Assembly (NCBI GenBank): GCA_902556105.1
Contig: CACDUZ010000003.1
Coordinates: 49,579 to 113,578 of the forward strand
Length of the DNA: 64,000 bases
Direction of reading: 5' to 3'
DNA from: an uncultured SAR86 cluster bacterium
GTDB lineage: Bacteria > Pseudomonadota > Gammaproteobacteria > Magnimaribacterales > D2472
The notes beneath the pieces are model-generated. The model was not told where the DNA came from and did not search any database. It worked only from the letters and a program-made list of their open reading frames with translations. Made by a program: the position numbers and the translations under genes. Shown here piece after piece: positions 30,015 to 64,000 of this stretch (positions are counted from its first letter, which is position 1; each line of letters begins with the position of its first letter).

Positions 30015-30091
30015 AAAACGTATAACAGTTTTCTACTTAGACACTATTTCCGCATAGAATATTTAAATATTAAACATATGGGGGATATTAA

Positions 30092-48028: not shown

Positions 48029-50896
48029 TTATATATTTTTGATCTCAAACTTTAGATTTTTCATCTCTTCAGAATAATTTTCACCAGCGATCACCGCTTT
48101 TTTAGATTCATTAAATAAATATTTTCTTGAAACATTCTCTAAATCTTTTAGAGAACACTCCTTTACCAAAGCTCTAAATCTTAGTCTTTGATCAATACTT
48201 TTTCTATCTAGATTATTAGCAAAATCACTCATTGCCTCACCATATGGAGATAATGGTTTATCTATACTAGAAATAACACCAAGGATGCCTTCATCGAGCT
48301 GATTTTGAGAAATTCCTTTTAAAGACCATTCTCTAGAATTTCTAAATTCATTAAATGTTTCAGTACATTTTGGATCGCGGTATGAAAAGAATTTAAATAC
48401 TTGATTTTTTGAGTCTTGCATTGCTCCAGCACCATAAGCACCACCTTTTTCTCTTATAGCTGAATGTAAGTAACCATTTCTTAAAACAGCTCCTAAAACA
48501 CTTAGAGCAGGAGCGTCTTCATGAAATGCATCGACAGTTGGAAATGCTTCAGCACAATAAGATACCTGTGCGCCAGTGATCCAGCCTATAGAGGCTTCTT
48601 GAATATCAAAATAACTTTGAGGCATCTGTGAAGTATTTTCTGAATTAAAATCAAAATTAAGTTGAGTTTGATCCATATCTAAAGAAGATGAGGTGAAGGT
48701 AAAAATAGGCTGAGAAACAATCTTGGATTTAATATTTTTAAGCAACTCAAGATATTTGTTTAAAGATAAATCATTATTAATTTCTCGAGCGAGTGCCCCA
48801 GTATTAGTTATAAAGTTAATACCTGAAGCAATATCATTTGTTGATGAAATATTATTTATTTGAGCAGCAGCATTACTCATTGCAAGAACGTGGCCGTTTT
48901 GAATAACAGACTTATCGTTATCCGATGCAATAAAAGTCAACATATCTTTAATTCTATTTTTATCTGTAAATTTTGCATTACCAACCATCTCAATCATTAA
49001 ATCCTGCATTTTATTTTCATTCTTCTCTAAGGACTTGGATGTAACTTTAATAGCCAAAGAATGCTCAGTCCTATTTTCATTTGGTAAAAGTATGAAATTT
49101 GCAGATATACCTCCAGTTACTGCTGATTGTATTTTTTGAACCTCTTCATAATTTTTATTTCCAATGCCAACATCAGTCAAAGTACTTGAATATAAAGAAG
49201 CAATGTTAAATTCCTCTTTTGTAAGCGGCTGGCATGGAAAAATTATGGAATGATATGTAATTCCATTTGTACCAGCTTTATAAAAATAATTTTCTGTATT
49301 GTTATGGCTTGTTTTTAAATGTCTTGCGTAGGCTCTTGATTCTGGAATATCATCTTTTGTCACTTTTGGAAGAACCTCAGGATCATCAATATGCTCTTGT
49401 CTTTCTTTAAGATTAACTGTCAGATCAACTATTCTTTGTTTATCCTTGTCTGTTAAAGTTTTTGATTTCTGAGTAACCTTATCTTGTATTATTTTATCTT
49501 TTTCATTATTAAAATTTACATCAGGAACTAGGGAATAATTTATTCGATGATTATTATCAATAATTTTTTCTTTTATAAGGTTTTCAATATAATTTTTATT
49601 TTTTAGATTCTTTTTGATTACATCAAATGATGAATCTAAATCCAAGACTTTTAGAGGATCATCATTGTGCAAGCATGCAGGAAGACAACCTAGCATGATT
49701 TGAAGACCATATGGCATTCCAGAACCAGTTATTTCCCTTTGTCTTATTTCTAGTTGATGAAGAGATGAGCTTATAAGATCCTCAGAAATACCATTTTTAA
49801 CTACATCTTTAAGACAATTCATTATTAAATCTTCAACTTGCTGTTGATTATTTGAATCAACTCCCTCCAAACCTGCAGCAAATACAAGTTCTTTATGATC
49901 TGCTTCAAGACCAGTCAACGGAGACAAAGATTTACCAAGATCTGTGTTCTCTAAAACTTTACGTAATGGCGAAGCTGAATTATCTAAAAGTATATTAGCC
50001 ATCAAATATGACTCTAATAGTTCAACAGGATCATGACTTTCACCTAGCAGCCAACCTAGGACAACGTGATGATTATTTTCATCTTCAGGCATAGGATTAT
50101 AGAATTCAGAAACAGTTTTTGGGGCATCAATCCTATTCTCATTCTTAACATTGATATCATTTTTTTCAGGTTTAAAACTTTTAAGTACATTTTCGTTTAT
50201 ATAACTTTGAATTTCTAATGGATCAATATCTCCAAATGTAAAGAATGTCGCATTTGAGGGATGATAGTGTTTCTTATGAAAATTTACTAAGTACTCATGG
50301 GTGAGGTCAATTATATTCTCAGGATTGCCTCCACTGTTATGTTTATATGTTGAAGAGGGATATAGATGTTTAGACATGCCATGCCACAATTGACTTGAAA
50401 TTGAGCTCATTGCACCTTTCATTTCATTAAATACCACCCCTTTAATTTCTAGCTTGCTATTAACATCATTTTCTTCAGAAAATTCGAGTCGATGACCTTC
50501 TTGAAGAAAATCTAACTCATCTAAATTAGGAAAAAATGATGAATCAAGATAAACACTTAATAAATTATTAAAATCTTTATCATTTTGTGTAGCAAATGGG
50601 TATGCAGTCCAATCACTAGAAGTAAAAGCATTCATAAAAGTATTCAAAGATCTTCTAATCATCATAAAAAATGGATCTCTAACAGGATATTTCTTTGATC
50701 CACATAAGGCCGTATGTTCTAGAATATGCGCAACTCCAGTTGAGTCTTCTGGAATGGTTCTAAATGCAACCATAAAAACCTTTTCATCACTTTTAGAATC
50801 TAAGTGAATATGTTTGCAATTAAACTCAGATTCAGTATATATTTGTGCATTGAGGTTTAATAAATTTATAAACTTTTGATCTTCAAGATTAAACAT
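48029..50896 (-). CDS. M16-family zinc peptidase (PreP/M16C-like, 955 aa)
   Basis: Inverted zincin motif HILEHTALCGS near the N-terminus. The length and repeated-domain layout are typical of presequence-protease-like enzymes. Confidence 0.88.
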   Translation of the reverse strand: MFNLEDQKFINLLNLNAQIYTESEFNCKHIHLDSKSDEKVFMVAFRTIPEDSTGVAHILEHTALCGSKKYPVRDPFFMMIRRSLNTFMNAFTSSDWTAYPFATQNDKDFNNLLSVYLDSSFFPNLDELDFLQEGHRLEFSEENDVNSKLEIKGVVFNEMKGAMSSISSQLWHGMSKHLYPSSTYKHNSGGNPENIIDLTHEYLVNFHKKHYHPSNATFFTFGDIDPLEIQSYINENVLKSFKPEKNDINVKNENRIDAPKTVSEFYNPMPEDENNHHVVLGWLLGESHDPVELLESYLMANILLDNSASPLRKVLENTDLGKSLSPLTGLEADHKELVFAAGLEGVDSNNQQQVEDLIMNCLKDVVKNGISEDLISSSLHQLEIRQREITGSGMPYGLQIMLGCLPACLHNDDPLKVLDLDSSFDVIKKNLKNKNYIENLIKEKIIDNNHRINYSLVPDVNFNNEKDKIIQDKVTQKSKTLTDKDKQRIVDLTVNLKERQEHIDDPEVLPKVTKDDIPESRAYARHLKTSHNNTENYFYKAGTNGITYHSIIFPCQPLTKEEFNIASLYSSTLTDVGIGNKNYEEVQKIQSAVTGGISANFILLPNENRTEHSLAIKVTSKSLEKNENKMQDLMIEMVGNAKFTDKNRIKDMLTFIASDNDKSVIQNGHVLAMSNAAAQINNISSTNDIASGINFITNTGALAREINNDLSLNKYLELLKNIKSKIVSQPIFTFTSSSLDMDQTQLNFDFNSENTSQMPQSYFDIQEASIGWITGAQVSYCAEAFPTVDAFHEDAPALSVLGAVLRNGYLHSAIREKGGAYGAGAMQDSKNQVFKFFSYRDPKCTETFNEFRNSREWSLKGISQNQLDEGILGVISSIDKPLSPYGEAMSDFANNLDRKSIDQRLRFRALVKECSLKDLENVSRKYLFNESKKAVIAGENYSEEMKNLKFEIKNI

Positions 50897-50916
50897 AAAA
50901 CAATAATAAATAATTT

Positions 50917-51429
50917 ATGAAAAAAATAACAACACTTTTTGTTCTGATATTTTTAGTAGGCTGTTCAACCACTCAGTCAAATTTGAAAATAGACTCGGTT
51001 GACACATTTAACCTTAGTAATTATAACAACTTTAATATAAAGATAAATAACTCCAATATAGGCGCTGAGGTAAATCCTATTGTGCTCGAAAGATTTAAAG
51101 AAAATTTAAAAAAAGCTATTGAAGAAAGAGGCCTTACTTTTAGTGAAGATTCAAATATTATCTTTGATATTAATTTTTCGACCAAAGAGACTGTTGAGTC
51201 TGACAGAATGAATCATTACTATTCTAGGTACTATTGGGATTTCTATAGATATCGTGACGACGTCTATAACGTAACTCGAAACTTCCTCAGAGTTAACTTA
51301 AGGGACATTGATGATGATAAAACTCTTTGGACGGTTGTAACTGTTTGGAGAGATGGATCTAACAGGTCAATTTCATATGATGATGCATCAAATATGCTTG
51401 TTGATGAAATAATGTTAAGTTTTTTATAA
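50917..51429 (+). CDS. small lipoprotein (DUF4136-like)
   Basis: Lipobox LVGCSTT. 170 aa. Confidence 0.5.
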   Translation: MKKITTLFVLIFLVGCSTTQSNLKIDSVDTFNLSNYNNFNIKINNSNIGAEVNPIVLERFKENLKKAIEERGLTFSEDSNIIFDINFSTKETVESDRMNHYYSRYYWDFYRYRDDVYNVTRNFLRVNLRDIDDDKTLWTVVTVWRDGSNRSISYDDASNMLVDEIMLSFL

Positions 51430-51443
51430 AGCAATAAGTAATC

Positions 51444-53162
51444 TTGCATAAATATTTAATACTTTCTTTTTTATTAATATTTGTATTCGCATGTTCGGAC
51501 TCGAAGCAAACAATTATAGATATCCCAATTACCTCTGATGTTGAAGATCTTATAGAGCATTCAAAAGAATTTGATCAGCAAGTCTTAACTTTTGATACTC
51601 CTGGAGGAAAAGTTCACTTTGCAATTGGATTTGGTATTGCCAATTCTATTATGGTTGAAGGAGATGAAGGCAATATTATTATTGACACATCTGACAGCGT
51701 TTTTGAGGCTGAAAAAATATATACACTGTTTCGCAAAAAAAATTCAAACCCCATAAAAGCAATTATCTACACTCACAATCATGGAGATCATACATTCGGA
51801 GCCTCTTATTATGTAAATCTTCAAAATGAAAAACCCCAAATTATTGCTCATGAGGATACTGATTATTATGTACAAAGAATTATGGGCATACTAAATCCAA
51901 TAATCACCTCAAGAAGTACAAAAATGTTTGGTACAGCACTTCCAGAAAAAGATTTAATTAATGTTGGTATTGGTCCCAGTCTCAGCGTCTCTAAATCTCC
52001 AACAGGCTATATAAAACCAAACTTAACTTTTAAAGATAATTTAAATTTAAATATTGCAGGTATTGAAATAGAGTTATTTCATGCGCCTGGTGAAACAAAT
52101 GATCAAATTTTTGTATGGCTTCCAGAGCATAAATCACTTATGCCTGGCGATAATATTTATAAAACCTTTCCTAATCTTTATACTATAAGAGGAACTACAC
52201 ATAGGGATGTAAAAGGGTGGATAGACAGCATTGATCATATGAAGTCATTTAGCCCTTCCTTTCTTTTTCCAAGCCATACAAAGCCAATAATAGGAGTTGA
52301 TAAAATCCAATCAGCCTTGAATACTTACAGGGACGCTATTCAATTTATTCATGATCAGACCATTAGGCTTATGAATCAAGGCTTATATCCTGATGAGATA
52401 GTTGAAATGATTTCGCTACCTAAACATATAGCAGATTCACCTTACTTATATGAGTTTTATGGAACTGTGAGATGGTCAGTAAAAAGCATTTTTAATGGTT
52501 ATCTTGGATGGTTTAGTGGTAATCCATCTGAATTAGATCCGCTTTCAAGAAAAGAAAAGGCGATAAGAATATCAAGACTTGCCGGAGGTAACGATAAATT
52601 ATTAGATCAGCTTAAGGTTGCTGTTGAAAATAATGATATGCAATGGGCCTTAGAGCTTAGCGATCATCTTATAGCTCTAGATTATTTTATTGATGAGGTT
52701 AAAGATTTAAGAATTGATGCATTAATATATGAAGGTTCTCGTTCCTCAAATCCTAATAAAAGAAATTATTTCTTAAGTTCCGCTCTTGAATTAAACGGGA
52801 GCATTTTAGATACACCTCTAACTGACAGAACCTCAGAAGAATTATTGCAAAACATTTCTATCGACACCTTATTTGATGTTCTATCTTCTAGATATAATCC
52901 TATTAATCACACAGACGATAATTTTAAAGTCTGCTTTAATTTTTCTTCTTCAAAATCAAAAAGCATTACTTTAAGAAATCAAGTTGCAGTGGTAAGCGAT
53001 GATATAGTTCAAAACTGCAATATAAAAATCCTTACAGAAGAGCTCGAGTTCAAAAAAATATTAGTTGGAATCTCTAACCCAGTATCTTTAATTGCTTCAG
53101 GAAGTATGGGTGTTGATGGAAGCACAACAGAATTTTTACAATTCCTGGCTAAATTCAGATAA
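51444..53162 (+). CDS. alkyl/aryl-sulfatase-like MBL-fold lipoprotein (SdsA1/BDS1 type)
   Basis: TTG start with lipobox VFAC. MBL motif YTHNHGDHTFG, a dimerisation region and a C-terminal SCP2-like tail. Confidence 0.78.
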   Translation: MHKYLILSFLLIFVFACSDSKQTIIDIPITSDVEDLIEHSKEFDQQVLTFDTPGGKVHFAIGFGIANSIMVEGDEGNIIIDTSDSVFEAEKIYTLFRKKNSNPIKAIIYTHNHGDHTFGASYYVNLQNEKPQIIAHEDTDYYVQRIMGILNPIITSRSTKMFGTALPEKDLINVGIGPSLSVSKSPTGYIKPNLTFKDNLNLNIAGIEIELFHAPGETNDQIFVWLPEHKSLMPGDNIYKTFPNLYTIRGTTHRDVKGWIDSIDHMKSFSPSFLFPSHTKPIIGVDKIQSALNTYRDAIQFIHDQTIRLMNQGLYPDEIVEMISLPKHIADSPYLYEFYGTVRWSVKSIFNGYLGWFSGNPSELDPLSRKEKAIRISRLAGGNDKLLDQLKVAVENNDMQWALELSDHLIALDYFIDEVKDLRIDALIYEGSRSSNPNKRNYFLSSALELNGSILDTPLTDRTSEELLQNISIDTLFDVLSSRYNPINHTDDNFKVCFNFSSSKSKSITLRNQVAVVSDDIVQNCNIKILTEELEFKKILVGISNPVSLIASGSMGVDGSTTEFLQFLAKFR

Positions 53163-53165
53163 ATA

Positions 53166-54383
53166 TTAATTCCCCGAGGGAATATCCTTAAATGCCACAC
53201 CTTTATCAGCTCTAGGATCTTGAGGTAGGCCTAAAACTCTTTCAGCAATTATATTGCGAAGAATTTCATCAGTCCCCCCAGCAATTCTTAGTCCGGGCGC
53301 ACCCAGCCAAGCATTATGGAAGCTTTTAATATCCTGATCATCTGTTTTCAGCATTCCAGCCATATCTAATGAATCAATTCCAAAGTTTCCTATATCTTGT
53401 AATTTCCCAGCACTAACAATTTTAGTAATAGACGCCTCAGGTCCAGGAGTGCCTCCTTTCGAGAGAGCAGACATAGTTCTTAGTTTTGTGTTCTTTAATC
53501 CACTTTTTTCACAATACCAATCAGCAATCGATTCTCTTGCAGCTTTATTATTTAGGAGTGGCTCACCTTGATCATCTTGAGTCTTTGCCCATCTAAAAGC
53601 GTCTTCAACATCTGCACCACTAGCATCGCCTACAGCAAGTCTTTCATTCATAAGAGTTGTTATTGCAACTTTCCATCCATCGCCAATCTCACCAAGTCTT
53701 TGAGAGTCTGGAATCTCAACATCAGTAAAATAAACTTCATTGAAGCTAGAGCCACCAGTTATTTGCTTAATAGGTTTCACTTCAATGCCTGGAGACTTCA
53801 TGTCTACAAAGAAAAAAGTCATTCCTTTATGTTTTTCAAGATCTGGATCATGTCTTACTACCAAAATTCCATAGTCTGAGAAGTGAGCACCAGATGTCCA
53901 TACCTTTTGCCCATTTATAATCCATTTATCACCATCTTTGACTGCTTTACTTCTTAGACCAGCAACATCTGAACCTGCTGATGGTTCTGAGAATAATTGA
54001 CACCATATTTCTTTTCCTTCAGCCATTGGAGGTAGATACCTTTCTTTCTGTTCTTGCGATGCGTATTCCATCATTACTGGCCCACACATACCAAGACCAA
54101 TTTCAAAGATACCTTTTGGTACATCAAACTTAGACTCTTCATTGCCCCAAATAATTCTTTCCATAGAGCTTGCATCAATACCGCCATATTCTTTGGGCCA
54201 GTGAAGCATTGCCCAGCCAGCATCATATTTTTTCTTTTGCCAAGCTTTCGCCTCTTTTAAACGATCTTTACTAGCAAAATCGTCAGACTTAGAGGTGCCA
54301 TCAACATACTCAGCATTTTTTTCTAGCCAATCTCTGCATTTTTTTCTAAATTGAGCTTGTTCGGGTGTATCTTTAAAATCCAT
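53166..54383 (-). CDS. acyl-CoA dehydrogenase
   Basis: ACAD patterns: CQLFSEPSAGSD, ING.K.W.SG, and the C-terminal IAGGTDEILRNIIAERVLGLP. Confidence 0.9.
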   Translation of the reverse strand: MDFKDTPEQAQFRKKCRDWLEKNAEYVDGTSKSDDFASKDRLKEAKAWQKKKYDAGWAMLHWPKEYGGIDASSMERIIWGNEESKFDVPKGIFEIGLGMCGPVMMEYASQEQKERYLPPMAEGKEIWCQLFSEPSAGSDVAGLRSKAVKDGDKWIINGQKVWTSGAHFSDYGILVVRHDPDLEKHKGMTFFFVDMKSPGIEVKPIKQITGGSSFNEVYFTDVEIPDSQRLGEIGDGWKVAITTLMNERLAVGDASGADVEDAFRWAKTQDDQGEPLLNNKAARESIADWYCEKSGLKNTKLRTMSALSKGGTPGPEASITKIVSAGKLQDIGNFGIDSLDMAGMLKTDDQDIKSFHNAWLGAPGLRIAGGTDEILRNIIAERVLGLPQDPRADKGVAFKDIPSGN

Positions 54384-54394
54384 ATTTATTTTTC

Positions 54395-55507
54395 CTAATT
54401 AATGTTTGATTGTTCTAAGCTTGTAACTAATTTTTCTCTCCAATTGCTAAGCGACCCAATATTTAGTGACAATAATTTTGATCTTTTATAAAACATGTGA
54501 CAATCATATTCCCATGTAAAACCATTCCCCCCGTGAGTCTGAATATTTTCTTTTGAACATAATTGATAAGCTTTTGTAGAACTAACTCTTGCCGTAGCAG
54601 AAGCAGAAGGTAAATCTGCTGAATTTGTAGAAAGAGCCCATGCTGCATAATAACAATTAGACTTTGCCAAAGTGAGAGCAATATACATGTCTGCTAACTT
54701 GTGTTTAATTGCTTGATAAGAACCAATAGGTCTTCCAAAAGCGTATCTTTCTTTTGCATAATTTATTGCCATATCAAGTGTAGCTTGTGAGCCACCAATT
54801 TGCTCATAACTAAAAAGAACAGCAGCTTGATTAATAATAGATTCATACATTTCCCAACCAGAACTCTCATCTCCAATGGCATTGCTCTTTACGTTATTAA
54901 AGGTGATAGAAAAATGACCTCTACTTTCATCAATATTTTCTTGATGCTCAATTGAAACTCCCTCTGATGAAAGATCAACAACTTGAAGGCTTACTCCATT
55001 ATTGGACTTTGCTACCACTATGGCATGAGTTGCCACTTCAGCATCTGGAACAGCTATTTTTTTTCCATTGAGAACTCCATCATTACAAGATAATTTAATA
55101 TTATGTTCTGTTGGTGCATACAAACCTTCTGTTATAGCCATAGTTCCAACAATTTCTCCATTTACAAGCTTTGGTAACAAGGATTTTTTTATCTCATCAT
55201 TACCATAATTAACAATAGCTTCTGTAAATAAATATACTGAGGATGAAAAGGGCACAGGTGCTAAAAATCTTCCAAGTTCTTCTGCAATAACACAAAGTTC
55301 AAGATGACCAAGTCCGAGACCGTCAAATTCTTCTGGGATTCTTATACCAGTCCAACCAAGATCAACAATTTTATTCCATAGCTCTTCATCAATATTTTTA
55401 TCTGTTTCTAAAACTGATCTGCTTCTAGATAAAGCACCTTCTTTGTCGAGGAATTTTCTTGCCTCTTCTTGAAGAAACTTTTGATCATCTGAAAAATCTA
55501 AATTCAT
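54395..55507 (-). CDS. acyl-CoA dehydrogenase family protein
   Basis: ACAD fold (YAKERYAFGRPIGSYQAIKHKLADM, IQTHGGNGFTWEYD). Tandem with the previous ACAD. Confidence 0.88.
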   Translation of the reverse strand: MNLDFSDDQKFLQEEARKFLDKEGALSRSRSVLETDKNIDEELWNKIVDLGWTGIRIPEEFDGLGLGHLELCVIAEELGRFLAPVPFSSSVYLFTEAIVNYGNDEIKKSLLPKLVNGEIVGTMAITEGLYAPTEHNIKLSCNDGVLNGKKIAVPDAEVATHAIVVAKSNNGVSLQVVDLSSEGVSIEHQENIDESRGHFSITFNNVKSNAIGDESSGWEMYESIINQAAVLFSYEQIGGSQATLDMAINYAKERYAFGRPIGSYQAIKHKLADMYIALTLAKSNCYYAAWALSTNSADLPSASATARVSSTKAYQLCSKENIQTHGGNGFTWEYDCHMFYKRSKLLSLNIGSLSNWREKLVTSLEQSNIN

Positions 55508-55575
55508 TATTACGTTTTATGTTAATGTAAAATAGATTTTATTATATGCTAAATAGTGTTTAATTTTAATTACCA

Positions 55576-56211
55576 ATGAATAGTAAGCTAAAGAAAGAAG
55601 ATAAATTACCGTCATACCTTCGTAGATCATCAAAAGGCGGACTTCTTGTAGGATTTATATACGTAATAGCTTTTATGAGTATTTTATTTTTAGCTATATG
55701 GCAAACATTTGAATCGGAAAAAAATAAAAGCGATATGCAACTTGTTGATGATCGACTCTCTTTAATAGAAGAACAAATCAATATTGTTGATGAAACCAAT
55801 AATGATTCGATGACAGATATTACATCTTCAATACAATTCCTTGATAAAGAAGTTAGAAAATTATGGGATTTAAGCAATAAAAGGAATAAAGTTAATATTC
55901 AGAACCTTAGTAATAAAACTGAAGAAATTCAGGAGCTATTAAATACGATCAAGATTGACATAAAAGAAAATCAAACAAATCTTTCATCTTTACAAGATGA
56001 TATTGCCATTAATATATCTAAAATTGATGAATTGGGTTTATCTTCAGATGATCTTGAGGAACTTAGACAAAAACTAAATAATATCAATACACAATTAATT
56101 CTGCTTGATGACTCTGTACAAGCCTTGAATAATTATAAAAATCAATTAAATCAGGCGATTTTAGAAATCCAGACGCAAGTCTCTTCTATTCAAAGCCAAA
56201 CTGATGAATAA
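55576..56211 (+). CDS. membrane-anchored coiled-coil protein (hypothetical)
   Basis: One TM helix, then heptad-rich Asn/Gln/Leu/Ile sequence. Confidence 0.45.
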   Translation: MNSKLKKEDKLPSYLRRSSKGGLLVGFIYVIAFMSILFLAIWQTFESEKNKSDMQLVDDRLSLIEEQINIVDETNNDSMTDITSSIQFLDKEVRKLWDLSNKRNKVNIQNLSNKTEEIQELLNTIKIDIKENQTNLSSLQDDIAINISKIDELGLSSDDLEELRQKLNNINTQLILLDDSVQALNNYKNQLNQAILEIQTQVSSIQSQTDE

Positions 56212-56258
56212 TTTTTTAGAAAATTGACAATTTTGTAAAATAGTAGTTTTATAAAGGC

Positions 56259-56471
56259 ATGAATAGGTTTGTGTTACAGGTTTTTTTATTTTTAGCGTTC
56301 ATACCTTTAGCAATACTAGTAGGGTATGGGGTATTGGTGGTAGCGCCAATTTTTTGCTGTTTTCTTGCAATAAACTCTTATAAATTTAACAATTACAAAG
56401 AAATGTACATTTGGATGGCGTTTGGTTGCCTATCATTTTTACTTGCTTTGTTTATGCTTGGAGTTTTATGA
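56259..56471 (+). CDS. small hydrophobic protein (hypothetical)
   Basis: 70 aa with two predicted TM helices. Its stop overlaps the next start (ATGA). Confidence 0.35.
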   Translation: MNRFVLQVFLFLAFIPLAILVGYGVLVVAPIFCCFLAINSYKFNNYKEMYIWMAFGCLSFLLALFMLGVL

Positions 56472-56863
56472 CCACATTTTTTAAAGGCTATTTATTATTG
56501 ATTGGTTTGATTTCTATTGTAATGGGCTTATATGGTATGTTTGCGCCGGATTTTAGTTGGTATCCACCATTTGAAACTATCGAAAGAGGAACATCATTAT
56601 CAAATTTTGTTCGGACTATTTCAGGAGTCTTTGTAGCTTCCGGCTACATACTTATAAGGTTTATATTTTCATCGTCAAAGGTTCAGCTAGGCACTGTCTT
56701 AATATATCTAGTAGCATTTATGTTAGTTGGTAAATTTACTGGTTTTCTTTACGATGGATTTCTTCAACATGACGTAATTGCATTTAGTTTGGGAATCATC
56801 ACATTTATAGCTTTACTAAGAATTCATAGGTATAGAAAAAGTTTATTAAATTACGATCTTTAA
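56468..56863 (+). CDS. hypothetical membrane protein
   Basis: The ATG at 56468 forms an ATGA overlap with the upstream stop. About 4 TM helices. Confidence 0.4.
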   Translation: MTTFFKGYLLLIGLISIVMGLYGMFAPDFSWYPPFETIERGTSLSNFVRTISGVFVASGYILIRFIFSSSKVQLGTVLIYLVAFMLVGKFTGFLYDGFLQHDVIAFSLGIITFIALLRIHRYRKSLLNYDL

Positions 56864-56869
56864 AAAATT

Positions 56870-56899
56870 TTCCACTTAAACATAATATCTATATATAAT
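56870..56899 (+). promoter_or_regulatory. candidate sigma70 promoter of tRNA-Leu
   Basis: TTCCAC, 18-nt spacer, TATAAT. The -10 ends 10 nt before the tRNA 5' end. Confidence 0.35.
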
Positions 56900-56909
56900 G
56901 CATCTTCTT

Positions 56910-56994
56910 GGGGATGTGGTGGAACTGGTAGACACGCTTGGCTTAGAACCAAGTGCCGCAAGGCGTGGGGGTTCGACTCCCTCCATCCCTACCA
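56910..56994 (+). tRNA. tRNA-Leu (anticodon UAG), long variable arm, CCA encoded
   Basis: Hand-folded. Acceptor GGGGATG/CATCCCT (G1-U72), anticodon stem CTTGG/CCAAG with loop CT-TAG-AA, T-arm GGGGGTTCGACTCCCTC. Confidence 0.88.
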
Positions 56995-57039
56995 TGTAAA
57001 TTTTTTTGTAAAAATTTTACTCGTAAAAATTAGTAATTA

Positions 57040-57924
57040 CTAAGAGCGAGCTTTAGAAAAGAGCTTGTATCTCATAAAGTACAACATCATTTTCCAGTCA
57101 GGAATTTTATAGGGATCGGGTTTATCTAAATTAGACCCCAGTTTGGATAAACTGGGGGCATTTTTATTAGACTCATTTTCTAAAAAAACTTCTTTTTGAA
57201 TCGAAGATAATAAGTTCAAAAAGCTATTTTTTACTAAGTGATCATTTGAAGAAGATTCTGTATTTGAATAACGAATCATAATAATTTCTCTACCAGGTTC
57301 AGTGAATTTAGGTAGTCGATGCCAAATAGATCTATGAAAGATTACAACTGTACCAATTCCACCATGAGTTTTAATAATATCTTTATCTGAAAATGGAGAT
57401 TTACTTAAATCAATGTATGTTGCATCATCAATCTTGTTTTTAGTTATAGAACTATTATCGATAGTACATAAATGAGATCTTTTCACAAATTCAGTAATAC
57501 CAAATTTTTTATCAGGCTTAGTTAAATATATAAATATACTCAATCCGTTTCCCAAGTCACTATGCAGTGGAATTCCATTCTCTGAAAAAATTTTTTTTTG
57601 AATTGAAATCGTTCCTAAAGAGATGTCTGAATTGAAATATTTTTTAAGAAACTTAATTAAATCTGTATCCAACACTAACTTAAGAGCTTTTGAGCTGCAA
57701 AGACCGACGTGGTCAATCCACTGATTATTTCCAATGATAAATGAAGATATTCTATTATTAAAACTTATATTTTTATACCAAGATAATGTATCCTTTCTTA
57801 TATCATTAATAATATCACTAGGAATTATACTGGGTAAAATAATTACTCCATCTTCCTTTAATTGTTTGAGATGATTTTCAGATAAAGATAAAAATGAAGG
57901 CATGGTAATTATTATACCTTGCAA
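57040..57924 (-). CDS. Fe(II)/2-oxoglutarate dioxygenase, phytanoyl-CoA dioxygenase (PhyH)-like
   Basis: PhyH-like N-terminus (LSENHLKQLKEDGVIILPSII), HxD (PLHSDL) and a distal His (VVIFHRSIWH). Confidence 0.55.
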   Translation of the reverse strand: MQGIIITMPSFLSLSENHLKQLKEDGVIILPSIIPSDIINDIRKDTLSWYKNISFNNRISSFIIGNNQWIDHVGLCSSKALKLVLDTDLIKFLKKYFNSDISLGTISIQKKIFSENGIPLHSDLGNGLSIFIYLTKPDKKFGITEFVKRSHLCTIDNSSITKNKIDDATYIDLSKSPFSDKDIIKTHGGIGTVVIFHRSIWHRLPKFTEPGREIIMIRYSNTESSSNDHLVKNSFLNLLSSIQKEVFLENESNKNAPSLSKLGSNLDKPDPYKIPDWKMMLYFMRYKLFSKARS

Positions 57925-57964
57925 TCTAGAATATAAAACATGCTAGTGAAAACCATATGTAGAA

Positions 57965-57989
57965 GGTTTGAATCCCTAAATCCCTACCA
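57965..57989 (+). repeat. decayed direct copy of the tRNA-Leu 3' end (T-arm/acceptor/CCA)
   Basis: GGTTTGAATCCCTAAATCCCTACCA versus tRNA 56970-56994 GGTTCGACTCCCTCCATCCCTACCA: 21 of 25 identical by hand alignment. All 4 differences are C to T/A. Confidence 0.75.
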
Positions 57990-58010
57990 TTAAGTTTTAA
58001 CATTTAATAA
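57971..58010. repeat. left copy of a perfect 40-bp inverted repeat
   Basis: AATCCCTAAATCCCTACCATTAAGTTTTAACATTTAATAA is the exact reverse complement of 62924-62963, checked base by base. Confidence 0.9.
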
Positions 58011-58272
58011 TTGTAAAAAGAGACCAGATTAATAGTCCATAGCCGAGAACTTTCTTTCCACCATACTTATCAGCTAAGTAGCCTCCAAGAATCATAGTGA
58101 TCATGTATCCAAAATAAAAAGAACCTAAAATTATGCCAACTTGAAGTTCAGACCAGCCAAATTGGTCTTGCATGGGAATAATAGCTACAGAAATATTAAC
58201 TCTGTCTATGTAACAGATAAAAACAGCTAAGAAAGATAAAAAAACAACTTTAAACCTATATGGGAAGTTCAT
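57997..58272 (-). pseudogene. MFS transporter, N-terminal fragment (about 2 TM helices) truncated at the left IR
   Basis: The 91-aa ORF starts like an MFS/ACS-family transporter (CYIDRVNISVAI...GSFYFGYMITMILGGYLADKYGGKKVL). The last residues IKC-stop are encoded by the repeat itself. ATGA overlap with the P450 stop. Confidence 0.7.
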
Positions 58273-59627
58273 TTAGGGGAAAACTTTATCGGCATTTCCT
58301 GAATTGCATGTACAAAATTATTAGGTGCTACCTTCCATTCGCCATTCATTTCAAAGTCTTGAAATCTTGATAAAAACTGCGAATAAAACTCTTGTAGTTG
58401 CATCAACGCAACGGGTTTACCAAGACAGGTATGTCTGCCTATTCCAAAAGCTAAATGTTTATCTGCATTTTTCCTTAAAATATTAAATTCATCAGGATTT
58501 TTAAAGATAGCAGGATCTCTATTTGCTGCTCCATACCATAATGCTACCTTCTCATGTGCTCCAATTCTTTGACCGTTTATTTCAGTTTCTTCTAAAGTAG
58601 TTCTTCTCATATGTATTACAGGGGATACACATCTTACAGTTTCATTTATAAAGTTTGGTATTAAGTCTTGATTCTGCATTAATAAATCTTTTTGAGTTTG
58701 ATTTTCATGAAGCAGTTTAATACCCCCACTCATGGTATTTCTTGTAGTGTCATTACCAGCAAAGATAATTAACAGCCACGATCCATCTAAAAATTCATCG
58801 CTTAACTTTTCTCCATCTATCTCAGCATTTGCAATTGCAGTAAGCAGGTCGTCAGAAGGATTCTCTCTCTTATCTTTTAATATAAACCTTCCATAATCAA
58901 ACATTTCATCAACCATTGAATTAAACATATCTATGATTGCAGGATCTGGTGTGGATTCTGTTTTTCCTTCGTTTTGTTCTTTAATAATTTCATATGTAAA
59001 ATATTGTGCAAGCTCTAAGAACTCCATCCACGATACTAGTTTTTGTCTATCTTCTTCTGGTATGCCTAATATTTCAGACAAAGTATATATAGGCAATTGT
59101 TGAGAAACTTGTTGTACAAGATTGCACTGACCCATTGGAGCTATAATATCTAATAATTCAGTAACTTTTACTGAGACTTTCTTTCTTAAATCATCAACAT
59201 ATCCAGGTTTAAAAAAAGGCATGTGTTCTTTTCTTAAGTTGAGATGCATTTGGCCATCTAAATTTAACATATGGTCAATTGTTGATTTGAATAGTTTTGG
59301 ATGTCTATTTTCTTCAGCTCCTTGGGTTAACATATTTCCAGTTGCATATTGAGATGAAAATATTTTTGGATTCATTGATACATGTTTTATATCCTCATAT
59401 CTTGTAAGCGCCCAATATCCTGGCTCTGGATCCATTGGCATAGGCTCATGAAAAAATATAGGAGCGTTATCTCTAAGTTCTTTATATAAGTCAAATGGCT
59501 GCCCTTTTGTAAATAAATCTAAGTCATTTAATTTATTAGATGGTTTGAAGGAATTTATTTGTTTGAAGGCAGGGTTTCTTATCTCATTATTAATAATTTG
59601 ATCAGATAGTACAAAACTTTTTGACAT
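58269..59627 (-). CDS. cytochrome P450
   Basis: Heme-thiolate loop FGIGRHTCLGKPVA, I-helix AGNDTT, and K-helix ETVRCVSP (ExxR). Confidence 0.93.
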   Translation of the reverse strand: MSKSFVLSDQIINNEIRNPAFKQINSFKPSNKLNDLDLFTKGQPFDLYKELRDNAPIFFHEPMPMDPEPGYWALTRYEDIKHVSMNPKIFSSQYATGNMLTQGAEENRHPKLFKSTIDHMLNLDGQMHLNLRKEHMPFFKPGYVDDLRKKVSVKVTELLDIIAPMGQCNLVQQVSQQLPIYTLSEILGIPEEDRQKLVSWMEFLELAQYFTYEIIKEQNEGKTESTPDPAIIDMFNSMVDEMFDYGRFILKDKRENPSDDLLTAIANAEIDGEKLSDEFLDGSWLLIIFAGNDTTRNTMSGGIKLLHENQTQKDLLMQNQDLIPNFINETVRCVSPVIHMRRTTLEETEINGQRIGAHEKVALWYGAANRDPAIFKNPDEFNILRKNADKHLAFGIGRHTCLGKPVALMQLQEFYSQFLSRFQDFEMNGEWKVAPNNFVHAIQEMPIKFSPK

Positions 59628-59660
59628 AAAATTAATTATAAATGATGGTTGAAAGAGAGG

Positions 59661-60266
59661 CTATTCGCCACCTCCTCCGCCACCTACTCCATCTGAAGTT
59701 GGTTTAGGATGAGTTAAATATATTGAAGACATAAAAGTAACTCCATTTCCTAGTGCTGATGATATCTCTTTTAAGTTTAGTTTTTCAGAAAGATCTGGAT
59801 ATGGTTCTGCATCACCAGTTTGATCATTTATAAGAAGTGCGCCTTTTTTTGATATTAAAAATATATCGTCAGATATTATTACTAGTGAATATTGTGTAAA
59901 AATTGATTTTTTAAATCTTTTCCTAAATACAATTTCTCCAGTATCCCATGATAACTTTGCTACTTCTTTTGATGAAGCAAGATAATACATATGATTATCA
60001 AGAGTATGTGGTATGAATGGAATTAAGGAGCTATGGAGAGTTTGTTGAAAATGTGACCATAGAAATTCTCCAGAGTCTTGCTTAAAACAGTGAACCATTT
60101 TTGAGCCTGTCCACATTGAGCTAAAGACTATTACATAGTTTTCATATTGACCGATAATATCTGGTTTATATCCAGGAGTTAGATCTCCAACCCATATAGG
60201 TTTATTTTCTGTTAAGTCGTATTTAGATACTGAGCCTTTTTTGCCGAAGATAGCTACTTTATTCAT
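59661..60266 (-). CDS. hypothetical beta-propeller-like (PQQ/BamB-like repeat) protein with a C-terminal oligo-Gly tail
   Basis: 201 aa with no signal peptide. Repeated G..lW-type blades (KPIWVGDL, GEFLWSH, TGEIVFRK). The C-terminus is DGVGGGGGGE, encoded by a GC-rich run. Confidence 0.45.
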   Translation of the reverse strand: MNKVAIFGKKGSVSKYDLTENKPIWVGDLTPGYKPDIIGQYENYVIVFSSMWTGSKMVHCFKQDSGEFLWSHFQQTLHSSLIPFIPHTLDNHMYYLASSKEVAKLSWDTGEIVFRKRFKKSIFTQYSLVIISDDIFLISKKGALLINDQTGDAEPYPDLSEKLNLKEISSALGNGVTFMSSIYLTHPKPTSDGVGGGGGGE

Positions 60267-60334
60267 ATTGTTAATTGTATAGAAGTGGTGCAGGGAATAT
60301 AACTCCCTGCATCAGCATTATCTAAAGCAACAAC

Positions 60335-62698
60335 CTAAAAGCTATAAGAATATTTAAGTGTTACTGTTCTCGGCGGTATCCATTGCATCCAGTTTCTTGG
60401 TCTCCAGGATGTATCATCAACAGCATATATATATGCCTCTGTTCTTTCATCAGTAAGATTATCAATGGATAATTGAAGTTTTGAATATTCACTCAAGTCT
60501 AATCCAAGATTGAAATTTAATTTTGTGTAATCTGGAGAGCTTGAATTTGGATTTTCAGCAAATGTATTAAAACTATCTCCATAATAATTTACATCAAGTC
60601 TTGCATAGGATGGATATGACATAATTGTTGTGTCATACACTAATCCAAGATTCCACTGAGTTTCAACTGTATTAGGTAGTCTATCGCCAGCTGAAGCGCC
60701 AAGAGATGAAATATCTATTGATGTCTCAGCAGTCATGGAACTTCCAGCAAAATCAAGAGAAATTTCATCATTAACTGTATAAGTAAAGTCGACTTCCCAG
60801 CCTGAAGTCTCAGCTTTACCACCATTAAAATTATATCTCCATCCACAACCCGGTGTTACCTGAATGATAATTCCATCCCAATCAACATCAAAATATGTAA
60901 CATTGGCACTATAATTTTCGCCTCTTGCTTTCACTCCAAATTCTGTAGTCTCAGCTTCGTCTGAATTAAATCTTCTTGAGAAGTTTGCTTGTGCTGCTTC
61001 GTCACTACTACAAAAAGGTGGAAGTGGAGCCTGATTTCCACCAGGTCTATACCCGGCTGCCTGTGTTGCATATAAGGTTAAGTCATCATTAACCATGTAA
61101 TTAACAGCATATTTCATTCTTGTATCAGACTCTGACCCTGAAAGTTCAGCACAATCAGTTCCAGCAGGATCATTACCATCACATCCATTGCTGTCCATAA
61201 AGAAGATACCATACTGATAAGATTTTGATGCATCTTCAATTTCATAATCTCTGATACCAAATGTTAGTGTTAACTTGTCATTAACGTTGTAATCAAATTG
61301 ACCATAAAAAGATGTTTCTTCTTGCTCGTTGTACTCAGTATAGGAACCATAATAGAAGTATGGATAGCCTAAATGATCATCACAGAAAGGAGGACAATAA
61401 ATTGTTGCATCATAATCGCCAGGACTTAAACCAGCTGCATAAAGCATCACATACTCTAACCAATCTTGATCCACCGCATATTGAGTTTGTGATACTGAAT
61501 TAGGTTCTTCATTAAACTTATAATTATAATAACCTACAGTCCACTCAAATTTGCCGGGTTTTGAGATTAATCTTAGCTCAGTTGTTTCTTGGTAAGATTC
61601 ATCTCCATCTACGATTAGTGGTGCTGGAACATAATCATCCATATCAATTCTAGCCCAATCAGTTACTGAATCATCAGTTACTGTTCTGTCAGAAATAATT
61701 AAGTTAGCATCAAAAGCACCAAAGTCATATTTAATATTCGCAATTAAAGTTTCTCTAGTAATGTCCTCAGATTCATCCGCTGCTAAAGCATGTGCAAATT
61801 TTGGATCATAATTTGTAAGAACTCCATTAACACCCTCGCTGACTGCATATGTTGATATTGCACTTAAACGTGAACATGTTGGATCTCCATCAAAATTATA
61901 AAACCAACTGGTTGCCTGAGGACAGCCCTCAACATAGACGTCTGCACTTCCAGGCTTACTTTGCCCAGGTTCCAAGATACCATATGCTTTATTATTAAAA
62001 TTTACGTATCGTAAACTACCAGTTAACTTTCCACCGTTGTTAAATCCTAGAGTAATCATTAATTGAGAGTCATCCTCTTCGCCAACAGTTTTGCCTGTTT
62101 GAATGTTTTTATAAATACCAGGAGAAACTAATTGTGAATAGACCGTCCTAAGTGCAAGATTGTCTGATAACGATAAGTTATACATCATTTCAATGCTAGT
62201 TTCTGGATCACTGGCTTTAACTTTATCACCGTAACCAATTCTTATTTTTCCATAAGATGCACTTGAATCAGGCTTATTAGTTATGTATCTGATGGTTCCA
62301 CCAATTGCATTTGAACCGTAGAGTGTACCTTGAGGTCCTCTCAATACTTCAATACGCTCAACATCGAATAAACCCATCAATGCTCCACTTACCTCATCAA
62401 TATAAGTTGAAGAAGTTCCAGAGCCACGTTGTGAAGTTGATGTGTTTAAACCCCTAAAGGTGTAATAATTTGAGCCGCCCGGTGTTGAAACACCTGCCAA
62501 TGATCGCAAATAGTCTTCAGGGTTTGTTATGCCTCTTTCTTCTAGTGCTGTTTCAGTAATAACAGAAATATTCATTGGTATTTCTTGAAGTGTTTCAGCC
62601 TTCTTGTTAGCAGTAACAATAACTTCTTCAACTTCTTGTGAAATTAAAGATAATGGCATTAAAAACAATGCGACATACAATAAATTTAAATTTTTCAT
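60335..62698 (-). CDS. TonB-dependent receptor (TBDR-4)
   Basis: Signal peptide MKNLNLLYVALFLMPLSLISQ, TonB box EVEEVIVTANK, plug IEVLRGPQGTLYGSNA, and a barrel ending ...YSYSF. GAGGA sits 7 nt before the ATG at 62698. The tracked ATG at 62704 is only 1 nt from that Shine-Dalgarno. Confidence 0.88.
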   Translation of the reverse strand: MKNLNLLYVALFLMPLSLISQEVEEVIVTANKKAETLQEIPMNISVITETALEERGITNPEDYLRSLAGVSTPGGSNYYTFRGLNTSTSQRGSGTSSTYIDEVSGALMGLFDVERIEVLRGPQGTLYGSNAIGGTIRYITNKPDSSASYGKIRIGYGDKVKASDPETSIEMMYNLSLSDNLALRTVYSQLVSPGIYKNIQTGKTVGEEDDSQLMITLGFNNGGKLTGSLRYVNFNNKAYGILEPGQSKPGSADVYVEGCPQATSWFYNFDGDPTCSRLSAISTYAVSEGVNGVLTNYDPKFAHALAADESEDITRETLIANIKYDFGAFDANLIISDRTVTDDSVTDWARIDMDDYVPAPLIVDGDESYQETTELRLISKPGKFEWTVGYYNYKFNEEPNSVSQTQYAVDQDWLEYVMLYAAGLSPGDYDATIYCPPFCDDHLGYPYFYYGSYTEYNEQEETSFYGQFDYNVNDKLTLTFGIRDYEIEDASKSYQYGIFFMDSNGCDGNDPAGTDCAELSGSESDTRMKYAVNYMVNDDLTLYATQAAGYRPGGNQAPLPPFCSSDEAAQANFSRRFNSDEAETTEFGVKARGENYSANVTYFDVDWDGIIIQVTPGCGWRYNFNGGKAETSGWEVDFTYTVNDEISLDFAGSSMTAETSIDISSLGASAGDRLPNTVETQWNLGLVYDTTIMSYPSYARLDVNYYGDSFNTFAENPNSSSPDYTKLNFNLGLDLSEYSKLQLSIDNLTDERTEAYIYAVDDTSWRPRNWMQWIPPRTVTLKYSYSF

Positions 62699-62713
62699 AA
62701 TCATATCCTCTAT

Positions 62714-62740
62714 AAAAAAAAACCCAGCATAAGCTGGGTC
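62714..62740 (-). terminator. rho-independent terminator-like hairpin abutting the TBDR-4 RBS
   Basis: Minus strand reads GACCCAGC-TTAT-GCTGGGT plus a T-run, followed immediately by ATAGAGGATATGATTATG. Confidence 0.6.
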
Positions 62741-62923
62741 TAATACATAAAAAAAGATCCAGCTACTTAGCGATTTCCCGGTTTTTATGTAATTTAATTT
62801 TAAACATTAGACTTTAGTATAACTACAAAAAGGAATTTGGCTAGTATTTTTTTGGTTAAAAATATCTGACTTATATATTTAAATTTAAGATCCTTAAGCA
62901 ACAACTATGTTTGAAGTAACTAC

Positions 62924-62963
62924 TTATTAAATGTTAAAACTTAATGGTAGGGATTTAGGGATT
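62924..62963. repeat. right copy of the perfect 40-bp inverted repeat
   Basis: The reverse complement equals 57971-58010. Three further matching bases lie beyond one mismatch on the tRNA-like side. Confidence 0.9.
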
Positions 62964-63043
62964 TAAATAAGAATAATTCATTAGACATATATGAGGATCA
63001 CAGATTAGATAGCAAATTAAGATCTGATGATCTTCTTAATAAA

Positions 63044-64000
63044 ATGACAATTGAAGAAAAGGTTGGGCAAATGTTTCATCCACCCTTCACTCTTAAACCA
63101 GATATATGGATGTTGATATATGAGATTGCTATAAGAGGAAATAAATCAACAGAAGCGCAAATACTTTTCGACAATATTTCTCATTTCAATCTTTATGGGA
63201 ATCCTAGTCCTGCAGAATTAGCAAATAAGATTAACCATTTTCAAGAGATAGCTTCAAGATCAAGATTAGGAGTACCTATAACAATAAGTTCTGATCCTAT
63301 CCATGAAGTTCCTAAAGGTGGCGGAGTTGCATCCTTTTCAGTAGATGGTTTTTCAAAGTGGCCATCTCAATTAGGATTCGCCGCAACAAACGACTCATTA
63401 ATAATTAAAAACTTTGCACAGATTGTAAAAGAAGAATACTTGGCGGTTGGAATTAGAACAGCGCTTCATCCAATGTCAGATTTAGCGACTGACCCAAGGT
63501 GGGCTAGAAATTTTGGAACTTTTGGATCTAATGCACTACTGTCTTCTGATATGACAATTGCATACATGAATGGATTTCAGGGAAACACTATAAGTAGTGA
63601 AAGCGTTTTAACGATGGTGAAACATTTTCCCGGTGGCGGCCCTCAACAAAAAGGACTAGACCCTCATTTATATAGCGGGAGAAATCAAACTTATCCTGGT
63701 AATAATTTTGATTATCATCTTATTCCCTTTAAGGATGCTATTAATAATAATCTCAAAGTAATAATGCCATATTATGGAATACCTATTGGTCAAACCAATG
63801 AAGATGTAGCTATGGCTTACAATGAATATATTCTTACTGATTTGCTTCGAGAAGAGCTTGGTTTTAGAGGAGTTATTTGTTCAGATTGGGGAATCATAAC
63901 TGGAAGGCATTGGGGTGTAGATGAACTTTCGATTGCAGATAGATATGAAAAATCTATCAATGCTGGTATTGATCAATATGGTGGAGAGACAGAAACATCT
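63044..64000 (+). CDS. glycoside hydrolase family 3 (beta-glucosidase/BglX-like), 3'-partial at the window end and probably 5'-truncated
   Basis: Not in the ORF track because there is no stop before the window end. Hand translation gives MTIEEKVGQMFHPP..., KHFPGGGPQ and GFRGVICSDW (nucleophile Asp). The frame is open back to 62951, inside the right IR, with no earlier start codon. Confidence 0.85.
   Translation, partial: MTIEEKVGQMFHPPFTLKPDIWMLIYEIAIRGNKSTEAQILFDNISHFNLYGNPSPAELANKINHFQEIASRSRLGVPITISSDPIHEVPKGGGVASFSVDGFSKWPSQLGFAATNDSLIIKNFAQIVKEEYLAVGIRTALHPMSDLATDPRWARNFGTFGSNALLSSDMTIAYMNGFQGNTISSESVLTMVKHFPGGGPQQKGLDPHLYSGRNQTYPGNNFDYHLIPFKDAINNNLKVIMPYYGIPIGQTNEDVAMAYNEYILTDLLREELGFRGVICSDWGIITGRHWGVDELSIADRYEKSINAGIDQYGGETETS

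Follow-up and report, generated by a model that had tools for sequence, protein, structure and literature searches.

Duplicated tRNA 3' ends are a feature of genomic islands targeted to tRNA genes, among them the islands of marine picoplankton and the tycheposon-type elements. Template switching at microhomologies in vivo is known as MMBIR/FoSTeS and from the tandem-inversion duplications of enterobacteria, and such events usually give duplications that keep an intact copy. A segment flanked by inverted repeats is also the shape of the Hin-, Gin- and Fim-type switches. Inverted joins can likewise be made in vitro. Of the chimeras formed during MDA, 85% are inverted, and 337 of 475 combine inversion with a distance of under 10 kb between the partners (PMC1855051). 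Priming at 2–21 nt of complementarity accounts for 76.8% of cases and for 93.5% of inverted joins of under 10 kb, while complementarity is found in only about a third of joins between partners more than 10 kb apart; chimeras arise at a frequency of about one per 10–22 kb (PMC1855051). A benchmark of the single-cell (GORG-type) assembly workflow gives 1.5 misassemblies per 100 kb (PMC11247762).

Here we analyse a 64,000-nt stretch (the window) of a contig from an uncultured SAR86 cluster bacterium, in which an earlier note had described inverted repeats with a tRNA-like core around a 4.9-kb cassette of genes. Like the Hin/Gin/Fim-type switches, the locus has a segment flanked by inverted repeats; unlike them, it has no recombinase, the native genome carries only one copy of its repeat, populations show a single orientation, and neither orientation gives intact genes. 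As in tRNA-targeted islands, a SAR86 insert lies between two direct copies of the ~25-nt 3' end of tRNA-Leu, relatives have the empty site, and cargo varies between strains. However, the SAR86 islands examined are tiny (about 1–3 kb) and lack an integrase, and the island model accounts for one half of the repeat, the tRNA-like one, but for neither the inverted copy nor the gene truncations. The inverted segment, short microhomology joints and small inverted duplication resemble MMBIR/FoSTeS, yet here two genes would be destroyed and a distant locus joined, and population support is nil.

The closest likeness in our view is to MDA chimeras (Lasken & Stockwell 2007): the first and second segments have opposite orientations, the two partners lie 4.9 kb apart on one molecule, the putative priming matches are short (6 and 11 nt), the frequency fits, and a 40-nt overlap is the expected remainder of the branch-migration step in that model. 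Less typical of such chimeras are two consecutive switches in one assembled contig, the second of them reaching a distant locus through a match of unusual length, and amplification of the source DNA is here something that we infer from the profile of the assembly. We put at roughly three in four the probability that three native pieces of one SAR86 genome were joined into this contig as a chimera through phi29/MDA-type amplification.

Results

The inverted repeat and its genes

The features of the region are as follows.

56910–56994, + strand: tRNA-Leu(UAG) gene, the integration target (ARAGORN; Rfam tRNA, 57.9 bits)
56995–57964: mini-island at the tRNA 3' end, with one 294-aa ORF; absent or swapped in relatives
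57040–57924, – strand: the 294-aa ORF of the mini-island (no Pfam match)
57965–57989, + strand: degenerate second copy of the tRNA-Leu 3' end (21/25), displaced to the island's far end as an att-type remnant
57971–58010, + strand: left copy of the 40-nt repeat (native L003 1031–1070) and end of native segment S1
57997–58272, – strand: truncated MFS transporter, 91 aa (native 424 aa; Pfam MFS_1)
58005–58010: junction 1, 6-nt microhomology TAATAA (alignment and exact walk)
58005–62963, – strand: segment S2, a native 4.96-kb block reversed, with the 40-mer, TBDR leader, TBDR, 201-aa gene, P450 and first ~87 MFS codons (matched by L003, L002 and L014)
58269–59627, – strand: cytochrome P450, 452 aa (Pfam; more than 100 homologues at 96–100% identity)
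59661–60266, – strand: 201-aa protein with weak PQQ/BamB-like beta-propeller similarity (Pfam; JGI name)
60335–62704, – strand: TonB-dependent receptor (TBDR), 789 aa (Pfam Plug and TonB_dep_Rec_b-barrel)
62705–62923, – strand: native TBDR leader, identical in L003 and L001, directly after the 40-mer
62924–62963, – strand: right copy of the 40-nt repeat, where S2 natively starts
62953–62963: junction 2, 11-nt microhomology ATTTAGGGATT (alignment and exact walk)
62953–64000, + strand: GH3 beta-glucosidase without its N-terminal ~55–60 residues, in segment S3; runs off the window

The perfect 40-bp inverted repeat of the earlier note was confirmed by exact string comparison, 57971–58010 being the reverse complement of 62924–62963 at 40 of 40 positions. 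A repeat search of the window gives arms of 44 nt with one mismatch (57967–58010 and 62924–62967). The flanks of the two copies differ on all four sides, and the window holds no third copy at up to 3 mismatches, where shuffles expect 0 matches. A 25-mer spanning the repeat is absent from viral contigs and from species-representative genomes and matches one metagenome contig, a native TARA contig. Given this near-absence from the three collections, the 40-mer is not a dispersed element, and the high-copy dispersal that had been raised as a possible objection does not apply.

One half of the 40-mer is a copy of the 3' end of tRNA-Leu(UAG), and the remaining 21 nt are native DNA downstream of that gene. 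The likeness that had been claimed is real: the last 25 nt of the tRNA gene (56970–56994) and 57965–57989 are identical at 21 of 25 positions, in direct orientation, so that the two form direct repeats around a ~1-kb single-gene island. An Rfam search at a permissive E-value found the tRNA alone. The mini-island is missing from L002, L009 and L014, in which the tRNA is followed directly by TTAAGTTTTAA; it is present in L003, and other inserts occupy the same place in L001 and L004. With these direct repeats and empty sites, the tRNA-like half is a genuine att-type remnant. No integrase was found in the mini-island, whose sole ORF is without a Pfam match, or in the islands examined in L049 and L054. 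Other SAR86 genomes carry tandem arrays with 2–3 tRNA-end repeats, and across ~45 loci all other tRNA-end repeats are direct. In SAR86, tRNA-Leu is an active and variable integration hot spot. The genuine biology at this place comes down to an ordinary att remnant, left at tRNA-Leu by a small island that has no integrase.

The assigned identities of the genes (TBDR, P450, the weakly PQQ/beta-propeller-like 201-aa protein, MFS and GH3) agree with Pfam, and the truncations claimed at both repeat edges are real. The 91-aa MFS frame matches only positions 2–78 of the 347 in the MFS_1 profile; it consists of ~87 native codons, its last codons and stop being supplied by the left repeat. The GH3 frame opens after a TAG at 62948–62950, inside the right repeat, and its N-terminal loss was established against the full-length homologues P0125 and P0130 and the native 5' sequence of L012. 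As had been stated, inverting the segment on paper restores neither gene, and no recombinase is found by Pfam across the ORFs of 57040–64000. Among about 15 billion proteins the 91-aa MFS product occurs in the source contig only; a search with the full-length MFS returned only intact 424-aa representatives and no informative fragments. Terminator-like sites number 7 against 2.7 expected, and of these we use only the terminator-like hairpin in the TBDR leader (62741–62720). A promoter scan gave background levels.

Native arrangement in relatives

We compared the locus with 12 near-identical SAR86 metagenome contigs (ten carrying one near-identical P450, plus two more) and about 35 SAR86 species representatives. 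In all of these the order is tRNA-Leu, an optional mini-island, TBDR, the 201-aa gene, P450 and an intact 424-aa MFS gene, co-oriented, with tRNA-Leu, P450 and full-length MFS all on the plus strand. All of the about 47 loci have this native orientation, and none is inverted. The TBDR–P450 'cassette', which had been taken for cargo, is thus a conserved chromosomal operon beside tRNA-Leu in every relative examined. Intact alleles of both truncated genes had been suggested as a check: MFS is intact at this locus in all of the relatives, and GH3 is full-length in P0125 and P0130, with native 5' sequence in L012, but in none of the relatives examined does a GH3 gene lie within 10 kb of the tRNA-Leu/P450 locus. 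In L017, a more distant homologue contig that may not be SAR86 (GH3 at 76% nucleotide identity), the GH3 neighbourhood has only paralogous acyl-CoA dehydrogenases in common with the window. A possible second break near the same MFS position, P0243/L016, was discarded as junk, a 596-nt contig with coverage of ~1 joined to unrelated, higher-GC DNA.

Of the rest of the window, positions 16026–46667 and 50307–57004 were compared and are colinear with relatives, the latter flank being syntenic core DNA. The 40-mer is single-copy in relatives (L003, L001) and belongs to fixed DNA downstream of the tRNA. L003 (1–1070, 99.9% identical to 56941–58010) runs natively from the left flank through its single 40-mer into the TBDR leader, continuing as GTAGTTACTTCAAAC, and the TARA contig L001 has the same join.

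Segments and junctions

The window is made of three native segments, each colinear with L003 or L012 (98.4–99.9%) up to exact breakpoints. In S1, which ends at 58010, tRNA-Leu is followed by the mini-island with its 294-aa ORF and then by the att remnant. S2 corresponds to L003 1027–5989, which matches 62967–58005, reversed, at 99.4%, and to L002 and L014 likewise; the native MFS join reads ...ACAATTATTACTCCATTTT. S3 comes from a GH3 gene at a distant locus and starts near its codon 55–60 (L012 164–1211 against 62953–64000, 98.4%). The missing C-terminal part of MFS, the 5' part of GH3 and the native neighbours of GH3 are all absent from the window. On these alignments the 'inverted repeat' is 40 nt of native sequence contained in both S1 and S2.

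At junction 1, TAATAA is common to the native DNA downstream of the tRNA and to the reverse complement of MFS codons ~86–88, and the join (spanning k-mer ACATTTAATAATTGTAAAAAGAGACCAGATT) links L003 1070 to 5989 on the opposite strand, 4.9 kb apart. At junction 2, a distant join of more than 10 kb (spanning k-mer GGTAGGGATTTAGGGATTTAAATAAGAATAA), the 11 nt are common to the reverse complement of the tRNA-like remnant and to the native GH3 codons for I-F-R-D. The two joints are at either end of the 40-mer, with different microhomologies and no common core. Among the other assemblies compared, neither junction nor the truncated MFS product recurs, against hundreds of near-identical contigs with the native arrangement.

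Discussion

Origin of the two junctions

The scar of site-specific recombination that the earlier note proposed would require an integrase, acting on a tRNA-derived att core, to have inverted the segment. Half of the 40-mer is indeed a tRNA-Leu att-type remnant at an integration hot spot, but a native genome with one copy of the site offers a recombinase no inverted partner, MFS and GH3 have no att-like core in common, and the two joints use different matches, of 6 and 11 nt, and lie at either end of the 40-mer, one joint being 15–21 nt outside the tRNA-like core. No recombinase gene was found in the region or in the islands examined, and all other tRNA-end repeats, at about 45 loci, are direct rather than inverted. 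Such a reading, judged from sequence, is already contradicted by the junction anatomy, and we consider it very improbable. Scarcely credible is the idea that a non-autonomous transposon or composite element, with the 40-mers as its terminal inverted repeats, carries the TBDR–P450 genes: perfect inverted termini do bracket the 4.9-kb segment, but in relatives the 40-mer is a single copy within fixed tRNA-downstream DNA, its spanning 25-mer is essentially absent from public collections, the supposed cargo is a conserved operon at the same place in all of them, and neither a target-site duplication nor a transposase is present.

A genuine complex rearrangement in one cell or strain, by template switching (MMBIR/FoSTeS-like) or microhomology-mediated end joining, deserves more attention, although we regard it as unlikely. 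Either switching, or end joining after breaks at the AT-rich site downstream of the tRNA, would have turned the 4.96-kb block round, with a duplication of 40 nt, and linked it to the GH3 locus, inactivating both MFS and GH3. Two microhomology joints and a short inverted duplication fit switching in vivo no less than in vitro. The contig runs cleanly across the joints and is otherwise colinear with relatives wherever the window was checked, and the tRNA-Leu site is a known hot spot of plasticity. Against this, at least three breakpoints plus the 40-nt duplication are required, two genes are broken, and the operon is parted from its conserved downstream core genes. A simple inversion, or one from staggered breaks with an inverted duplication, predicts the C-terminal part of MFS after the right repeat, where GH3 is found instead; that part of MFS is nowhere in the window, and we rejected both. 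Among the assemblies compared, the junctions and the truncated product are also confined to this one, against the hundreds of native contigs. The more specific version, in which a fork collapsed at the AT-rich att remnant and switched twice at microhomologies, along the neighbouring operon and then to the distant GH3, is slightly more doubtful still.

Our preferred explanation, a chimera made during amplification, is what the earlier note had itself named as a case against its proposal, and on the sequence comparisons it is the best supported. The setting would be strand-displacement (phi29/MDA-type) amplification of a single-cell genome. A growing strand would meet the 5' end of a downstream strand primed at 57971, and its 3' end (...TAATAA) would be displaced by branch migration over those 40 nt. 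This displaced end could then re-prime on the displaced downstream strand at TTATTA within MFS, 4.9 kb off, and the downstream strand would be copied back to its 5' end. The run-off 3' end, ending in the 11 nt of junction 2, would prime on a GH3 strand, and the assembler would follow the over-amplified chimeric molecule. Junction 1 falls in the commonest class of MDA chimera (inverted, partners less than 10 kb apart) and junction 2 in the rarer, distant class; both matches are within the 2–21 nt range. Since only about a third of MDA joins over more than 10 kb have complementarity, the 11-nt match at junction 2 counts as a strong one.

For the assembler to pass both joints the chimeric molecule must locally have outweighed the native path, which is plausible given the bias of MDA. 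A misjoin by the assembler alone was rejected, since any k-mer size far exceeds matches of 6 and 11 nt. Most SAR86 species representatives are GORG single-cell assemblies with contigs of 100–370 kb, and the unannotated 113.8-kb source contig at NCBI likewise fits that profile, from which we infer amplification. Were the source an unamplified metagenome bin, an MDA origin would become unlikely.

Significance

The locus is a caution that a perfect, sharply delimited inverted repeat, a tRNA-like core and truncated genes can together mimic the biology of mobile elements and recombinases. Aligning close relatives resolves the inverted repeat into two microhomology joints. Where they occur in public single-cell assemblies, joints of this kind can give rise to false calls of invertible switches, novel transposons or pseudogenes, here a 91-aa MFS and an N-terminally truncated GH3. 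If the rearrangement were instead genuine, a wild MMBIR-type event would have been captured in a streamlined marine genome, at a hot spot for tRNA islands. The SAR86 tRNA-Leu(UAG) hot spot itself is a known kind of feature, of modest use for studies of the flexible genome.

The inverted repeat and the genes at its edges

Exact comparison bears out the perfect 40-bp inverted repeat described in the earlier note: reverse-complementing 62924-62963 gives 57971-58010 without a single difference (40/40). The gene identities proposed there (MFS, P450, TBDR, propeller-like and GH3) are likewise upheld by Pfam, giving the following features.

Features of the locus (window coordinates)
56910-56994: tRNA-Leu(tag)
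57967-58010 and 62924-62967: inverted repeat arms, 44 nt with one mismatch (repeat search)
57997-58272, minus strand: MFS fragment, 91 aa, Pfam profile positions 2-78 of 347
58269-59627: P450 (Pfam)
59661-60266: 201-aa protein, weak PQQ/propeller similarity (Pfam)
60335-62704: TonB-dependent receptor, TBDR (Pfam)
Plus strand, frame opening behind a TAG that lies within the right repeat, first ATG at 63044: GH3 hydrolase (Pfam)

The lone "mismatch" of the 44-nt repeat is the point where GH3 sequence begins. No further copy exists in the window at ≤3 mismatches (chance expectation is also none), and three public collections contain almost no match to the sequence. The reported likeness to a tRNA-Leu 3' end is real: the last 25 nt of the tRNA recur in direct orientation at 57965-57989 (21/25 identical). 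The tRNA-like half of the repeat is the displaced tRNA end, left behind by island insertion. The other half is fixed DNA downstream of tRNA-Leu, because the island-less genomes L002, L009 and L014 show the tRNA followed immediately by TTAAGTTTTAA.

Proteins of the window trace to one unannotated NCBI contig of 113,790 nt, and among ∼15 billion proteins the truncated MFS product was found in this source contig only; P450 homologues at 96-100% identity number >100. We also observed a strong terminator-like hairpin in the conserved TBDR leader (62720-62741, minus strand; AGACCCAGC...GCTGGGTTT plus a T-run), a few bases 5' of the ribosome-binding site. It matches no Rfam family, and could be the tRNA-Leu transcription terminator or an attenuator.

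The native arrangement in relatives

The DNA belongs to a SAR86 gammaproteobacterium. We read the gene order in twelve contigs with near-identical P450s. All twelve carry two acyl-CoA dehydrogenases, a 211-aa protein (called as a 112-aa fragment in L014), DUF4345, tRNA-Leu, an optional small insert, and then an operon of TBDR(+), 201-aa(+), P450(+) and MFS(+), beyond which lie a thioredoxin-like gene and other conserved genes. The MFS, 91 aa in the window, is a full 424 aa in these contigs, the copy in frameshift-ridden L014 being split into two ORFs. In that 649-kb contig (JGI 3300046170) the MFS is broken into 111 + 138 aa and a Lactamase_B/alkyl-sulfatase gene into two, each intact elsewhere; such splits are typical of long-read assembly frameshift errors. 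Co-oriented tRNA-Leu, P450 and full-length MFS are also found in ∼35 SAR86 species-representative genomes, none of which has a GH3 within 10 kb of the locus. What had been taken for a mobile cargo cassette (TBDR/201-aa/P450/MFS) is a conserved chromosomal operon.

We regard comparison with contig L003 as decisive on the native arrangement. Over its positions 1-1070 it agrees with window 56941-58010 to 99.9%, sharing the 294-aa-ORF island and the 44-mer, and 1027-5989 match window 62967-58005, reversed, at 99.4%. Therefore a near-identical genome has a single 40-mer, with the TBDR leader as its native continuation. In the TARA contig L001 this native join recurs, here preceded by a different island. 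The other stretches of the window that were compared, 16026-46667 and 50307-57004, are colinear with relatives.

Anatomy of the two joints

At joint 1, the left breakpoint, the window tracks L003 to 58010 and the reverse complement of native MFS from 58005, with six bases in common (TAATAA). Native MFS runs from ...ACAATTATT into ACTCCATTTT; the window instead passes from ...ACAATTATT into AAATGTTAAAAC. Neither the missing C-terminal part of MFS nor the conserved genes downstream of it occur anywhere in the window. A 596-nt contig of coverage ∼1 (L016, 1-596) breaks the same gene 8 nt short of joint 1, where unrelated DNA of higher GC takes over; a chimeric read pair is the probable cause, and its break near the T-run CTCTTTTT may be coincidence.

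At joint 2, the right breakpoint, the window tracks the L003 reverse complement to 62963 and native GH3, represented by contig L012, from 62953; eleven bases are common (ATTTAGGGATT). The L012 GH3 stays in frame upstream (...INYLKPLEKLKIKNSLYDEVKTLKIDGEIFRDLNKNN), agreeing with the N-termini of P0125 and P0130, two full-length homologues that have a hydrophobic leader as well. The window GH3 has therefore lost ∼55-60 residues, in line with the missing N-terminus described in the earlier note, and this 5' part is nowhere in the window. In L017, a more distant homologue contig (76% nucleotide identity in GH3) that may or may not be SAR86, the native GH3 neighbourhood has the order topA ... NAD kinase, acyl-CoA dehydrogenases, NMO, GH3, MsrAB, GST; the window holds no counterpart.

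L012 (ENA ERZ27252076 k141_893221, metagenome) begins with Illumina P5/Nextera adapter sequence (1-71), so the 5' end of its GH3 is cut off and the gene call is short (560 aa). GH3 genes 97-99% identical to that of the window lie on only four contigs, each ≤2.4 kb, against hundreds of contigs for the neighbouring-locus P450; in this population, then, GH3 is probably accessory and assembles poorly.

Origin of the structure

The window thus consists, in series, of S1 (to 58010), S2 (a native 4.96 kb, reversed) and S3, which comes from a distant locus. What looks like an "inverted repeat" is the 40 nt common to S1 and S2. Two consecutive microhomology-primed template switches account for everything seen. 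Matches of 6 or 11 nt are too short for an assembler join, and thus molecules with both joints existed. The published anatomy of phi29/MDA chimeras fits the joints: 85% are inverted, 337/475 being inverted with partners <10 kb apart; complementarity of 2-21 nt occurs at 76.8% of joints and at 93.5% of inverted joins <10 kb; and chimeras arise about once per 10-22 kb (PMC1855051). A strand growing rightward would run into the 5' end of one already primed downstream, at 57971, and its own 3' end, at 58010, would be displaced. That end would re-prime inside MFS on the displaced downstream strand and copy back to that strand's 5' end, where the run-off end would prime on GH3. The 40-nt overlap may correspond to the branch-migration zone of the MDA model. 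Most of the SAR86 species representatives are GORG single-cell assemblies without annotation ("AG-..." isolates; contigs of 100-370 kb), and a benchmark of the GORG-Tropics laboratory workflow gave 1.5 misassemblies per 100 kb (PMC11247762), so that one or two events are expected per 64-kb window.

We put the probability of an amplification/assembly chimera, the source amplification being presumed, at roughly 75%. An in vivo template-switch rearrangement, real in that cell, seems unlikely to us, and the small remainder goes jointly to recombinase or transposon readings. To the earlier note the structure looked like the scar of site-specific recombination or rearrangement at a tRNA-associated hotspot; the att remnant stands, but the recombination scar does not. 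Site-specific recombination is rejected: the native genome has one site copy, the joints fall on opposite edges of the 40-mer, each with a short match of its own, neither MFS nor GH3 has an att-like core, the region and islands examined contain no recombinase gene, and all other tRNA-end repeats (∼45 loci) are direct. A TIR transposon was also discarded, the sequence being single-copy fixed host DNA without target duplication and near-absent from the collections. An inversion, whether simple or by staggered breaks, would have placed the C-terminal part of MFS 3' of the right repeat, which is not the case. Most likely, then, the headline structure is not a real genomic feature.

Other observations in the window

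Three independent metagenome contigs with identical FolE all stop 120-190 nt upstream of folE (window ∼15958-16026), which suggests a strain-variable region left of ∼16026. A tandem array of three genes for TonB-dependent receptors (912, 935 and 937 aa) occupies 24219-32905, the second and third being ∼73% identical in DNA over the 3' ∼1.2 kb.

tRNA-Leu as an insertion hot spot

The DNA between tRNA and operon ranges from ∼0 to 9.7 kb across genomes. Several carry the last ∼25 nt of the tRNA in two or three direct copies, which delimit successive small inserts; none of the copies is inverted.

Direct tRNA-end copies
Window: 56970-57989, from the first copy to the second
Contig L054: 1682/5003/6327
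Contig L081: 2908/4140/5302
Contig L049: 307/1530
Contig L050: 7509/8219

One L054 insert encodes a PLD-type endonuclease and a C5 cytosine methylase. Representatives of three different species share one island left end (TGAAACAACGATAAACTCGTTA) next to the tRNA, and the islands examined showed no integrase. In SAR86, insertions recur at tRNA-Leu(UAG), which makes this gene a hot spot, a feature of an already known kind.
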